Source: Eledone cirrhosa (taxonomy: Eukaryota). From it: DNA of 64,000 nt. Positions 46,301 through 63,830 of the stretch are shown here, in pieces. The stretch is from positions 310,001-374,000 of the forward strand of contig CAXHJY010001105.1 of NCBI GenBank assembly GCA_964016885.1, given 5' to 3'. The translations under genes and the position numbers were made by a program. The notes under the pieces were generated by a model. That model was not told the DNA's origin. It did no database searches and saw only the letters and a program-made list of their open reading frames with translations. Within the stretch, counting starts at the first letter, position 1, and each line of letters opens with the position of its first letter.

Positions 46301-46365
46301 TATTTTATTATATATATTTCAAGGGTAACCAAGACAACATTGGTACGCTTTCATCAGATAAAATA
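46301..46365 (-). ncRNA. Type I minimal hammerhead ribozyme
   Basis: Minus strand: UAUUUUAU-CUGAUGA-AAGCGUACCAA-loop-UUGGUUACCCUU-GAA-AUAUAUAU-A|AUAAAAUA. It has an 8-bp stem I and a palindromic stem III. Confidence 0.75.
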
Positions 46366-46673
46366 CAAAGTTTGTTTTATAAATAGAGACGGACACACAC
46401 ACACACACACACACACACATATGTATATATATATATATATATATATATATATATATATTTCGTTTCTGAATTTGTTTAGCAAGATTCTTTATCTGAAATC
46501 GTGTGTTGAAACCGATATTGTTATACTTTGGGAGGGTCATGTTGCCAATAAGAAACACACGCACCAGTTGCTTTCACTTCAATTTAATTTAATATATATT
46601 TATAAATTTACAAATTTATAAATTTCTGGTTGGTTGGTTGGTTCCACAACCAGATAGTTGTTTATATATATAT

Positions 46674-46718
46674 AGTCATAGTTCTTTCGTCACACACTCT
46701 GTGACCTCTTCAGTGACT
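46674..46718 (-). ncRNA. Hammerhead ribozyme motif, mirror copy in the left palindrome arm
   Basis: Reverse complement of 46830-46874. Confidence 0.65.
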
Positions 46719-46829
46719 GGGGATTTCTTTCTTCGTTTCTGTGCCTTTCCTTTCTTCTATCCTACGCCATTTTCAAAATGGCGTAGGATAGAAGAAAGGA
46801 AAGGCACAGAAACGAAGAAAGAAATCCCC

Positions 46830-46874
46830 AGTCACTGAAGAGGTCACAGAGTGTGTGACGAAAGAACTATGACT
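46830..46874 (+). ncRNA. Type I minimal hammerhead ribozyme motif
   Basis: AGUCA-CUGAAGA-G-GUCACA-GAGUG-UGUGAC-GAA-AGAACU-A|UGACU: stem I 5 bp, stem II 6 bp, one extra nucleotide after A9, short stem III. Confidence 0.65.
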
Positions 46875-47230
46875 ATATATATATAAACAACTATCTGGTT
46901 GTGGAACCAACCAACCAACCAGAAATTTATAAATTTGTAAATTTATAAATATATATTAAATTAAATTGAAGTGAAAGCAACTGGTGCGTGTGTTTCTTAT
47001 TGGCAACATGACCCTCCCAAAGTATAACAATATATATATATATATATATATAAAATCATCAAGAAAACTATGATAATTTCCTTCGAATGAAATAGTTCTA
47101 GTCCTGTAGAAGCCATTTCTATATTAAACATTGTATATACTCTACTATGTATTGAGTACCTTATTGGGGTTACCCCCGATTGAACATAGGGACTCGTGTG
47201 TATATATATATATATAAATAATTATATATA

Positions 47231-47329
47231 AATAATTATCTTATGTTGTTTATTACATAACACACACACATATATATATATATATATATATATATATAGT
47301 TATGTAATAAACAACATAAGATAATTATT
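47231..47329. repeat. ~30-bp inverted repeat around a (CA)/(TA) spacer
   Basis: AATAATTATCTTATGTTGTTTATTACATAAC ... GTTATGTAATAAACAACATAAGATAATTATT. Confidence 0.85.
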
Positions 47330-47586
47330 TCATTTACCAGTGGTTTCTTGAAAGCAAACAAATTTGCTTTCAGTCAAGATGGAATATATAGGGTGTCTAT
47401 AATACAGTTGTTGTTCAATGGTATTAATTTGAGATACCAGAACTATAAAATTGAGATGAAATGTTTACTTGATCTGCTCATCTCCATTTTATATAGTGCA
47501 AATTTATACACGAACAAAACAAAGAGGCAGACAAATAAAGGTTTATTAGGTTCACGCTTTTGAGAGTGTGTGTGTGGGGGGGGGGG

Positions 47587-47614
47587 GACGTTTCTGGCAT
47601 AAGCCCTTCTTCAG
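47587..47614 (-). ncRNA. Degenerate hammerhead core, paralog of 45718-45745
   Basis: Minus strand CUGAAGA-A-GGGC-UUAU-GCCA-GAA-ACGU-C. Flanks at about 47541-47652 resemble 45673-45785. Confidence 0.5.
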
Positions 47615-60062: not shown

Positions 60063-60135
60063 ACGACAGCTATTAGTCCCAGTAGTATTAACACATTTGT
60101 TTATCCGGATTCTAAATTGGTCGGATTTGAAGAAC

Positions 60136-61250
60136 TGGTGGTGGGGGAGGGGTGGTGGGGGAATGGCGGAGTGTAGTGTGGTGGTGTAGTGGTGGTGTTG
60201 CTGTTGTTGTTGGTGTTGGTGGTGGTGTAGTGGTGGTGTGGTGGTGTAGTGGTGGTGTTGTTGTTGGTGGTGGTGTAGTGGTGGTAGTGTGTAGTGGTGA
60301 TGGTGTAGTGGTGGTTTTGTTGTTGTTGGTGGTGGTGTGGTAGTGGTGGTGGTGGTGTAGTGGTGGTGTTGTTGTTGGTGGTGGTGATGGTGTAGTGGTG
60401 GTGTTGCTGTTGTTGTTGTTGGTGGTGGTGTAGTGGTGGTGTTGGTGGCGGTGGTGTGAGTGATAGAGGAGTTAGGGAGGGAGAGAGAGAGAGTGAGTGG
60501 TGATGAGCCCCAGGGGGAGAGGTGAGAGTGAGTGGTGGTGTGAGGGGATAATGAGTGACAAAGGCGAGAAAGAGGGAGAGAAGAGTGAGTGGTGGTGATG
60601 GGTCTTAGAGGGAGGGGGAGGAGAGAGTAAGTGGAGGTGGTAAGAGGTGATGATGAGAAAAACGGGGAAGGAGAGTTGGAGGAGGGTGGGGGGTCGAGAG
60701 TAGGTGGTGGTGTGAGGCGATAATGAACGACAGAGGCAGGAGAGAGAGGGGAGGGAGTGTGTGGTGATGATCCCCAGGGGGAGAGAAGTGAGAGTGGTGG
60801 TGATGGCAAGAGGTGATAATGAGAGAGAGAGAGAGTGGTTGTGAGAGATGATGATGAGAGAGAGAGGAAGGAGAGGAGTGAAGGAGGATGTGTGTTTTGG
60901 TGGGAGGTGTTGATGGCTGACATAGGGAGAGGGAGGAAAGGAGAGGGGTAGTCGGGGGGGTTATGTAGAGCAAGAGAGAGAGCGGGAGAAGGTGGGGAGT
61001 GAGCGAGAGAGAATTGTTAGGAAATGAATGACAGAGGTGAGAGAGTGGTGGGGAGAGGTGATGAGAGAGAGACATAACATGAGAAGAAGAATAGGAAGAA
61101 AAAAAGAAAGAAAGAAAGGAGAAGGCAAAAGAAGAAGAACAAGAAAGAAAGAAGGAAGAAGAACAACAACAAGAGGAAGAACAAGAAGAAAGAAAGTAAG
61201 AAAGAAGAATAATAAGAAGAAAAGAAATGAAAAATTGAGGAGAAGGTTGA
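60136..61250. repeat. (GGT/TGT)n then GA-rich low-complexity tract
   Basis: Direct reading. Confidence 0.85.
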
Positions 61251-61261
61251 AAATAGGCGTT

Positions 61262-63566
61262 TATATATAATATATATATATATATATATATATATATATA
61301 TATAAATATATATAGAGAGAGAGAGAGGAGAGAGAGAGAGAGAGAGAGATAGAGACAGGAAAGAGGGGAATGAACTGGAATAGCTTTAAACTCCCCCTCT
61401 GTTATTGACAAAACAGGAAAGGAAAAAAACAACAGTGGACACACTGGAAGTAGATAAATAATCTCTACAGAACAGTTCTCTCTCTCTCTCTCTCTCTCTC
61501 TCTCTCTCTCTCTCTCACACACATGTATATATTTATATATGTATATATATATATATGTATATATATATATATATATATGTATGTATATATATATGTATAC
61601 TATATATGTATGTATTATGTATATATATATATATGTATGTATATATATGTATGTATATATATATATGTATGTATATATATGTATGTATATATATATATAT
61701 ATGTATGTATATATATGTATGTATATATATATATGTATATATATGTATGTATATAAATGTATGTATATATATGCATGTATATATATATTATGTATATATA
61801 TATATGTATATATAATGTATATATATATATATGTATATATATATATGTATATATATATATGTATATATATATATGTATATATATATATGTATATATATAT
61901 ATGTATATATATATATATATGTATATATAAATGTATGTGTATATATATATGTATGTATGTATATATATAATGTATATATGTATGTATGTATATATTATAT
62001 GTATATGTATGTATGTATATATGTATGTATATATATATATATACATATATATATATGTAATGTATATATATATGTATGTATGTATATATGTATGTATATA
62101 TATATATATACATATATATATATGTATGTATATATATATGTATGTATATATACATATATATATGTATATATATATATACATTATTATATATGTATATATA
62201 TACATATTTATATATGTATATATATACATATTTATATATGTATATATATATATATATATACATATTTATATATGATATATATACATATTTATATATGTAT
62301 ATATATATATATATATATATATACATATATATATATATATACATATATAGGGAGAGAGAGGCTGGAATTTTTGTGTTATTCCGACGCCCCCCCACCTTCC
62401 TGTCTTCCCCCCTCTGTCTGGATATATATATATATATATATATACGCACTTATATATATATCTATCTATACATATACACTTTATTATATATATGTATATA
62501 TATACTTATATAACACTTACTATTAATCATAATATATCCGTCTATCGACACGTTTATGACACTTAATCATAACTATATATATATATATATATTAATATAT
62601 ATATATATATATATATATATATATATATATATATATATATATGTATATATAACTGTATATATATATAAATACATATATATATATATATATATATATATAT
62701 ATATATATGTATATATAACTGTATATATATATAAATACATATATATATATATATATATATATATATATATATATATATATATATATATATATATGTATAT
62801 ATAACTGTATATATATATAAATACATATATATATATTATATATATATTATATATATATATATATATATATATATAAATATATATATATATATATATATAT
62901 AAATATATATATAAATACATATATATATATATAAATATATATATAAATACATATATATATTATATATATATATATATATATATATATATATAAATATATA
63001 TATATATATATAAAATATATATATATATATATATATATATATATAAATACATATATAAATACATATATATATATATATAAATACATATATAAATACTATA
63101 TATATATATATATATATATATATATATATATAAATACATATATAAATACATATATATATATATATAAATACATATATAAATACACATATATATATATATA
63201 TATATATATATATATTAAATACATATATATATATATATATATATATATAAATATATATATATATATATATATAAATACATATATATATATATATATATAA
63301 ATACATATATATATATATATATATAAATACATATATATATATATATATATAAATACATATATATATATATATATATAAATACATATATATATATATATAT
63401 ATAAATACATATATATATATATATATATATAAATACATATATATATATATATATATATATATATATAAATACATATATATATATATATATATATATATAT
63501 ATATATATATATATATATATATAAATTACAAATATATATATATGTATATATATAAATACATATATT
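61262..63566. repeat. Interrupted (TA)n microsatellites, including AAATACAT(AT)n sub-repeats
   Basis: Direct reading. Confidence 0.92.
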
Positions 63567-63610
63567 TATACGATATTAATAAATGGAAGCTATATTTATA
63601 AAACCATATT

Positions 63611-63675
63611 TATTTCATTATACATATTTCAGGGATACCACATTAAATTATGGTATGCCTTCATCAGACAAAATA
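63611..63675 (-). ncRNA. Hammerhead ribozyme, mirror copy
   Basis: Reverse complement of 63766-63830. Confidence 0.72.
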
Positions 63676-63765
63676 CAATATATAATAGTTTTACAAATAG
63701 GTTTGACGTACTCTTTAAAATACAACCATTACTTTTGGAGGCTGTCAGGATATTATATTATATTG

Positions 63766-63830
63766 TATTTTGTCTGATGAAGGCATACCATAATTTAATG
63801 TGGTATCCCTGAAATATGTATAATGAAATA
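63766..63830 (+). ncRNA. Type I minimal hammerhead ribozyme
   Basis: UAUUUUGU-CUGAUGA-AGGCAUACCAUA-AUUUAA-UGUGGUAUCCCU-GAA-AUAUGUAU-A|AUGAAAUA, followed by AATAAA. Confidence 0.72.

Follow-up and report, generated by a model that had tools for sequence, protein, structure and literature searches.

Why would a hammerhead ribozyme motif keep one unpaired cytosine at a fixed place in a helix while the base pairs around it change? The question is raised by a 64,000-nt stretch of the Eledone cirrhosa genome (contig CAXHJY010001105.1 of assembly GCA_964016885.1, positions 310,001 to 374,000; hereafter, the window), which holds five hammerhead ribozyme motifs, named here by core position and strand as 46357(-), 48071(+), 48558(+), 53120(-), and 63774(+), in which the fourth pair of an extended stem II is occupied by a C that faces another C or, in one case, an A. 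A preliminary description, made from the letters alone, took this mismatch to be a selected internal-loop element and proposed that it serves as a tertiary contact, a dimer interface, or a protein site. From sequence comparison, we conclude that the motifs are type I, dimer-type hammerheads in the pseudo-long terminal repeats (pLTRs) of Penelope-like elements (PLEs), retrotransposons that belong here to the Hydra clade. We hold this identification, and the selection on the mismatch, with high confidence, and both are far better supported than the mechanism by which the mismatch acts.

Conservation of the mismatch and identity of the host element

The five motifs share one architecture: CUGANGA and GAAA enclose a stem II that measures 26-32 nt, or 116 nt at 48071; stem III is palindromic, and stem I has 5-8 bp. 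The type I hammerhead core is present, in that CUGANGA, GAAA, and an NUH triplet (AUA or GUU) meet at a three-way junction. Pairs 1-4 of stem II, which are listed in Table 1, are as the preliminary description gave them (its coordinates for the motifs were the ends of stem I), and pairing resumes at pair 5 in all five, again as it had said. In window positions 40301-64000, the part covered by the chance test, the pattern of core plus stem II occurs six times; reversing the sequence gives none, and 100 block shuffles give 0.18 on average (maximum 2). A scan of the window at Rfam gathering scores returned no matches, and it missed the canonical PLE hammerheads there as well. Folds of single sequences are mostly weak (z below -2.5 in two of six motifs, the long-stem motif at 48071 reaching -5.99); it is covariation that carries the structure. 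The five had been presented as a set of divergent hammerheads; all of them are real, but the set omitted hammerheads of the canonical type that belong to other Penelope-like families of the window, and the C.A of 53120, although present, is a private change within a C.C family, an otherwise identical C.C copy being found genome-wide.

We searched the whole genome, which is 3.0 Gb and rich in microsatellites, with two patterns that left pair 4 of stem II free. One pattern had U before GAAA (the U set), and the other had a different base there and also demanded a purine at 10.1. Together they gave 76,782 matches, compared with 157 in reversed controls, and C.C stands at pair 4 in 68,618 of the matches (89%). 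In the U set, C.C is found in 51,357 of 55,553 matches (control, 23 matches and no C.C), and in the non-U set, it is found in 17,261 of 21,229 (control, 134 matches and a single C.C). Collecting homologs genome-wide was part of the check that the preliminary description had proposed for its claim, and the observation extends to the whole genome.

Watson-Crick repairs of pair 4 amount to about 1% or less in each direction: C-G occurs in 219 of the 55,553 U-set matches and G-C in 566 over both sets, some of the latter being misaligned rows among the matches listed. Among those listed, the repaired copies are isolated and scattered across many families, and they look like changes that followed insertion. 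The 5′ C is lost in 2,541 U-set matches, mostly to T among the matches listed. C lies opposite A or T in 4,266 matches, and 49 of the first 100 of these belong to one short-stem C.A family. C10.4 is therefore kept unpaired, facing C or, in an amplified minority, A, and it is invariant across the representative alignment considered below. A family consensus with a Watson-Crick pair 4, which the preliminary description had named as evidence against its own proposal, was not found among the matches listed; an amplified paired family was likewise absent from them, although a small one could be missed. No U.U, A.A, or G.A family was seen at pair 4, which argues that the identity of the base is kept and not just the weakness of the position.

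A search for C.C motifs whose stem III does not start with T, with stem II up to about 50 nt (the 116-nt family lies outside this range), gave 804 matches compared with 152 in the control, and those listed are mostly mutated members or misread motifs of a Neptune-like type. A metagenome scan, which is silent on animals, returned 32 loci, none with both an extended stem II and a stem I, and we read these as chance. It had also been stated that none of the five motifs has the canonical G10.1-C11.1 pair. This is true of the five, but many members of the clade combine C.C with G10.1-C11.1, and the variants at pair 1 include A-U, G.U, G-C, A.C, A.A, and C.A. A tie between the mismatch and the missing canonical pair is not supported, since G...C first pairs often occur together with C.C and G.U or U.U first pairs are already present in published Hydra-clade hammerheads.

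The covariation alignment consists of 13 hand-picked representatives. Pair 4 is unpaired in all 13, and the other six pairs of stem II are paired in all 13, each with changes on both sides, so the flanking pairs covary while the mismatch persists, as had been claimed from the first five motifs. When stems I and II are taken together, 10 of 12 pairs show changes on both sides in these chosen rows, and there are three pair types at pair 3 and four at pair 2. The covariation score was matched in none of 500 shuffles, and in slid controls the paired share falls from 90% to 34-55%. The alignment contains 15 G.U cells, and for this reason the sense RNA is favored as the strand that folds.

Open reading frames (ORFs) with the same orientation precede the motifs, which lie sense to and 3′ of the ORF, and terminate 0.6-1.9 kb upstream of them. 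The host ORFs carry the motifs RWR (at locus L066), DKT (L065 and L066), CxCX5C, CxxC, and CxH, and four of them (L063, L064, L068, and L303) have a CxCX5C linker and, at the C terminus, a GIY-YIG-type endonuclease (EN) with CxxC and CxH. Copies are placed in (TA)n arrays with inverted truncated pLTR arms. We assign the elements to the Hydra clade because these protein motifs and the insertion into (TA)n fit its definition in PMC8557442, and their reverse transcriptase (RT) blocks, compared by eye, read like the Hydra alignment in Figure S7 of that paper. A Pfam scan of five ORF pieces returned no families; database homologs of the host ORFs carry PF26215, and the sole species-named protein among 120 listed homologs is from Argonauta hians. 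The 3′ untranslated part, which is 0.6-1.9 kb and reaches about 3.5 kb in L303, makes these elements longer than the published Hydra elements, which are described as "generally short," and the limit of under about 3 kb does not hold for them. An assignment of the L069 ORF to the GGAC family was dropped.

The C.C lineages have diverged deeply. Between distant ones, RT identity is about 48-65% and EN identity is 33-49%. In a FastTree tree with a midpoint root, to which 45 of the 120 database homologs were added and from which L265, L271, L061, L066, and L068 were left out, the C.C-linked proteins group with a support of 0.998 and apart from a sister family that has no C.C; the group also takes in five database proteins and three loci whose family is uncertain (the loci so classed are L259, L263, L264, and L271). 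This sister Hydra lineage gave 9,075 matches (2 in the control); its stem III is ACCANUGGU, its stem II is fully paired among the matches listed, and its RT is 27-44% identical to those of most C.C lineages. In a dimer, the odd palindrome ACCANUGGU would give stem III a 1x1 mismatch at its center, often C.C. Broken sister-family copies with this stem III lie at window 53716(-) and about 47330-47380(-).

The 48071 motif belongs to a family with a 116-nt stem II that gave 1,142 pattern matches. Its best copies are 98-99% identical, and the family is, as far as these copies indicate, young. C.C is present in 20 of its 20 best loci and, in a sample taken without ranking, in 26 of 27 rows, and its stem III differs from that of the other families. 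L303:584-2473, a member of this family, holds an open 630-amino acid RT-EN frame whose 5′ end is cut by the inverted arm. Within the family (L273-L302), the sequence of 16 of 27 rows ends or turns into an inverted copy no more than about 10 nt upstream of the core, inside the 5′ strand of stem I, and these breakpoints mark a hot spot for 5′ truncation right after the ribozyme has been copied. A fixed 5′ end, suggested by 20 of 20 best matches, was rejected as a bias of ranking, because real upstream sequence is present in 11 of 27 rows.

We conclude that the proposal of a selected internal loop, here a 1x1 loop, is supported by the covarying flanks, by the deep divergence of the lineages, and by there being no amplified paired family among those seen.

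Possible functions of the mismatch

To weigh what the mismatch does, we considered where copies end, what the mismatch costs, and what it could touch. Of 161 unique copies, 154 carry on past the predicted cleavage site for at least 39 nt, their lengths peaking near 50 and 140 nt, and because they run past the site, the insertions come from RNA left uncut at the 3′ ribozyme. A scheme in which the ends of cleaved RNA would anneal to the TA target and so prime insertion is unsupported for most insertions, since just 2 of the 161 copies stop at the site. In silico, a pair at position 4 makes the hairpin more stable by 2.4-6.7 kcal/mol in all 15 groups, and the inner helix is marginal in 7 of 15 native copies, where pair 2 has a probability of 0.55 or less. 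Stem I has no base common to all families and no fixed internal loop, it varies from 4 to 10 bp, and in the 116-nt family the helices on both sides are regular; a base-specific RNA partner is disfavored for these reasons. Stem III is palindromic, as in minimal dimer-type motifs, and its self-duplex is worth -2.2 to -3.2 kcal/mol (-10.0 in the long-stem family). Stem III and the cleavage site together read (UA)4, resembling the (TA)n target, at window 46309-46316, 48595-48602, and 63815-63822, and this sequence is conserved across most C.C lineages, though any palindrome would do for dimers.

The explanation that we favor, with confidence a little short of even, is that C.C (rarely C.A) would act as a hinge and as a binding site through which the RT-endonuclease protein of the element gates cleavage. 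Two motifs would pair through stem III to give an active double hammerhead. In free RNA, the three pairs next to the core would be kept weak by the mismatch, most molecules would escape cleavage, and the 3′ repeat would thereby be preserved as template; protein bound at the open site would stabilize the helix and license cleavage when it is needed. We favor this protein-gated hinge over an RNA tertiary contact or a dimer interface because there is no conserved partner in stem I and because 154 of 161 copies run past the site. Of the three functions in the preliminary description, a protein site is then the most likely; a tertiary contact is possible, without a visible partner, and a dimer interface is unlikely since dimers join through stem III. 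There are precedents for parts of this explanation. The Poseidon hammerhead of the anole cleaves only with the element protein, and its main template is uncut RNA (PMC11167929); in thymidylate synthase mRNA, a CC mismatch makes a crevice for ligands in a protein-binding stem (PMC3627590); and of the four triplets compared in one viroid hammerhead, the slowest was AUA (PMC1636495). A broader conjecture, speculative and distinctly unlikely in our estimate, is that this is an old, cephalopod-wide Hydra branch with a protein-switched hammerhead, in which the C.C loop would be the handle for a telomerase-like RT and the (UA)4 end that cleavage leaves, by matching (TA)n, would couple self-cleavage to the choice of target. 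Among natural retrotransposon hammerheads, it would be the first with a protein site defined by sequence.

Several points weigh against the protein-gated hinge. All of the evidence comes from a single genome, and the lineages share ancestry. Some repaired copies occupy both inverted arms of one insertion (e.g., L304), from which it appears that the paired version can be copied at least once or can arise by conversion. For 8 of 15 groups, folding predicts that the inner pairs form regardless of the mismatch (P of 0.74 or more). A site read by RTs that are only 48% identical, between flanks that change freely, would have to be recognized by its shape and one base only. Finally, the mismatch is not needed for Hydra transposition in general, as the sister lineage and the 26 published Hydra rows spread without it.

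A role confined to RNA is possible but unlikely in our judgment. Here, the mismatch would dock on stem I or bind an ion, replacing the contact between loop 1 and loop 2 and raising activity at low Mg2+. C10.4 is invariant, its distance from the core is about that of the end of the 4-bp canonical helix II (PMC4209133), and in the long-stem family nothing near the core is irregular apart from the mismatch and pair 1; in addition, C stands at pair 4 in 16 of 26 published Hydra rows, where it is paired with G. A tertiary or metal site of this kind fits poorly with a stem I that offers no shared base or fixed internal loop over its 4-10 bp and with genomic copies that derive from uncut RNA, and the hammerheads of metazoan PLEs have been reported to have no such contacts and to be weak in vitro (PMC4209133).

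It is also conceivable, and we think improbable, that any weak spot in stem II would serve as a plain brake, slowing the ribozyme so that full-length RNA survives. The cost of 2.4-6.7 kcal/mol and the low probability of the inner pairs in 7 of 15 groups are what a brake would show, pair 1 also tolerates A.C, A.A, and C.A, and the weak stem III duplex (-2.2 to -3.2 kcal/mol) and the AUA triplet point in the same direction. However, only C.C and C.A have been amplified, and a generic brake should vary both the mismatch and its position across such divergent lineages. It is very improbable that the Cs were simply inherited without selection on an RNA fold or were kept at the DNA or antisense level, either as a promoter or in a cDNA hairpin, where C.C becomes G.G and C.A becomes T.G. 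The antisense reading would make both variants tolerated mismatches, and inheritance suits one genome with related lineages in which a few families dominate the copy counts, but the adjacent columns have turned over several times between lineages at 48% RT identity, the 15 G.U cells favor folding of the sense RNA, and stem II lengths (20-47 and 116 nt) vary in single-base steps, which preserves no reading frame. That the mismatch forms part of an interface between the two ribozymes of a dimer is hardly credible, even though the motifs are of the dimer type with a palindromic stem III, because partners join via a stem III stacked on stem II (PMC4209133), which would point the stems II apart, and C.C is unchanged while stem III switches from AUAUAUAU to ACGAUCGU.

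Other features of the window

The coordinates of the motifs and their inverted partners are collected in Table 1.

Table 1. Hammerhead motifs with a C at pair 4 of stem II, and associated arms, in window coordinates
Feature	Span	Strand	Core	Stem II	10.4	11.4	Pairs 1-4	Stem III	Predicted cleavage	Stem I
Type I hammerhead, Hydra-clade pLTR fragment	46301..46365	-	from 46357	46350-46321	C46347	C46324	A-U, A-U, G-C, C.C	AUAUAUAU	after A46309	8 bp
Inverted truncated arm of 48071 element	about 47740-48065
Long-stem variant hammerhead	48066..48210	+	48071	48078-48193 (116 nt)	C48081	C48190	C.A, G-U, G-C, C.C	ACGAUCGU	after U48205
Type I hammerhead	48553..48607	+	48558	48565-48590	C48568	C48587	G-U, G-C, U-A, C.C		after A48602	5 bp
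Type I hammerhead	53062..53128	-	53120	53113-53082	C53110	A53085	G-U, G-C, A-U, C.A
Inverted partner of 53120 copy	53498..53585	+		split by TA-rich insertion
Sixth copy, inverted arm of 63774 hammerhead	63611..63675	-	63667		C63657	C63634
Type I hammerhead	63766..63830	+	63774	63781-63810	C63784	C63807	A-U, G-C, G-C, C.C	AUAUGUAU	after A63822

The 63774 element extends about 140 nt further, up to a TA array. In read contigs over 63720-63955 from four of five runs, 63784 and 63807 show no other letter at the 3% level and 63788-63809 is variable; the reads are possibly from the same organism and run X5 has a depth of about 2, so they are not independent support. At window 63745-63765 and at L001, the inversion junctions hold a short antisense copy of the 3′ strand of stem II, which makes an alternative hairpin in folds and is likely to have come from a template jump during insertion.

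Canonical bulged hammerheads lie at 46713(-), 46835(+), and 49437(+), a family that, from its motifs, we take to be of a Neptune-like clade. The first eight bases of the 5′ strand of its stem II are the same as in the 48558 family, but with C-G in place of C.C, which is either coincidence or deep homology. We considered the 46835 family as a repaired member of the C.C group and rejected this, its ORF being of another, Neptune-like type. Short minimal hammerhead-like motifs with a 13-nt stem II, an ACGU stem III, and a weak stem I are found at 47614(-) and 45745(-). Elsewhere, a 47-bp satellite of about 839 copies with 95% matches fills 918-40322, and the broken pieces at 50826-52447(+) resemble a Helitron Rep/helicase, with Pfam Helitron_like_N matching 52022-52444 (E 5e-23). 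A short frame at 56567-56878(-) appears to resemble the C-terminal end of a long interspersed nuclear element reverse transcriptase.

Relation to known hammerheads and significance

The closest published relatives are the Hydra-clade PLE hammerheads of Craig et al. 2021 (PMC8557442), which are likewise of type I, lie on the sense strand near the 3′ end, and have a palindromic stem III, a stem II foot at which G.U or U.U is frequent, insertion into (TA)n, and the same protein motifs. They differ in that, by eye, C.C is at pair 4 in none of the 26 rows of File S2 and C-G in 16 of them, in a stem II of 3-8 bp as opposed to 20-47 and 116 nt here, and in lacking the even (UA)-type palindrome of stem III. 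The minimal hammerheads of metazoan PLEs described by Cervera and de la Peña 2014 (PMC4209133) resemble ours in their location in pLTRs, inverted pairs, dimer architecture, enlarged helix II, and many families per genome. Their consensus, CUGANGAH G...C GAAA, has a bulged base, whereas the motifs here have no bulge and a variable first pair; the combination of a bulge after A9 with G10.1-C11.1 is thus absent, and the published Hydra rows depart from it too. The available part of that paper describes no conserved mismatch, and, by eye, C.C is absent from pair 4 of all its 56 aligned examples; one sea urchin example has C.A, and one fluke example U.U, at the fourth pair after the bulge, which may hint at a wider spread of the mismatch.

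The Poseidon element PAc of the green anole (Frangieh et al. 2024, PMC11167929) is, like ours, a PLE with a hammerhead whose main template is uncut RNA, and its 3′ tail comes from two RT start sites, which may be compared with the copy ends near 50 and 140 nt past the site here. Unlike ours, it belongs to another PLE clade; its dependence on protein was demonstrated, whereas here such dependence is only inferred, and the available part of the paper mentions no mismatch. The dimer-cleaving PLE variants of Lünse, Weinberg, and Breaker 2017 (cited in PMC6765202) share with ours a short palindromic stem III and cleavage as dimers, and PLE hammerheads in general act as dimers, weakly (PMC4209133, PMC6765202). 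In the literature searched, with the 2017 survey of PLE variants lying outside the comparison, we found no description of a conserved C.C in hammerhead stem II, and the motif, a selected variant in the structure of a ribozyme already known from an established clade of retrotransposons, is apparently undescribed.

Descriptors that demand a perfect stem II and Rfam models miss one of the most numerous hammerhead types of this genome. On their own, PLE hammerheads are poor at cleavage, one of them depends on the element protein, and the template is uncut RNA. A base-specific mismatch in about 69,000 copies, with a sister lineage as a natural control, supplies a precise point mutation for testing protein assistance, and the young family with the open 630-amino acid RT-EN frame of L303 provides experimental material.

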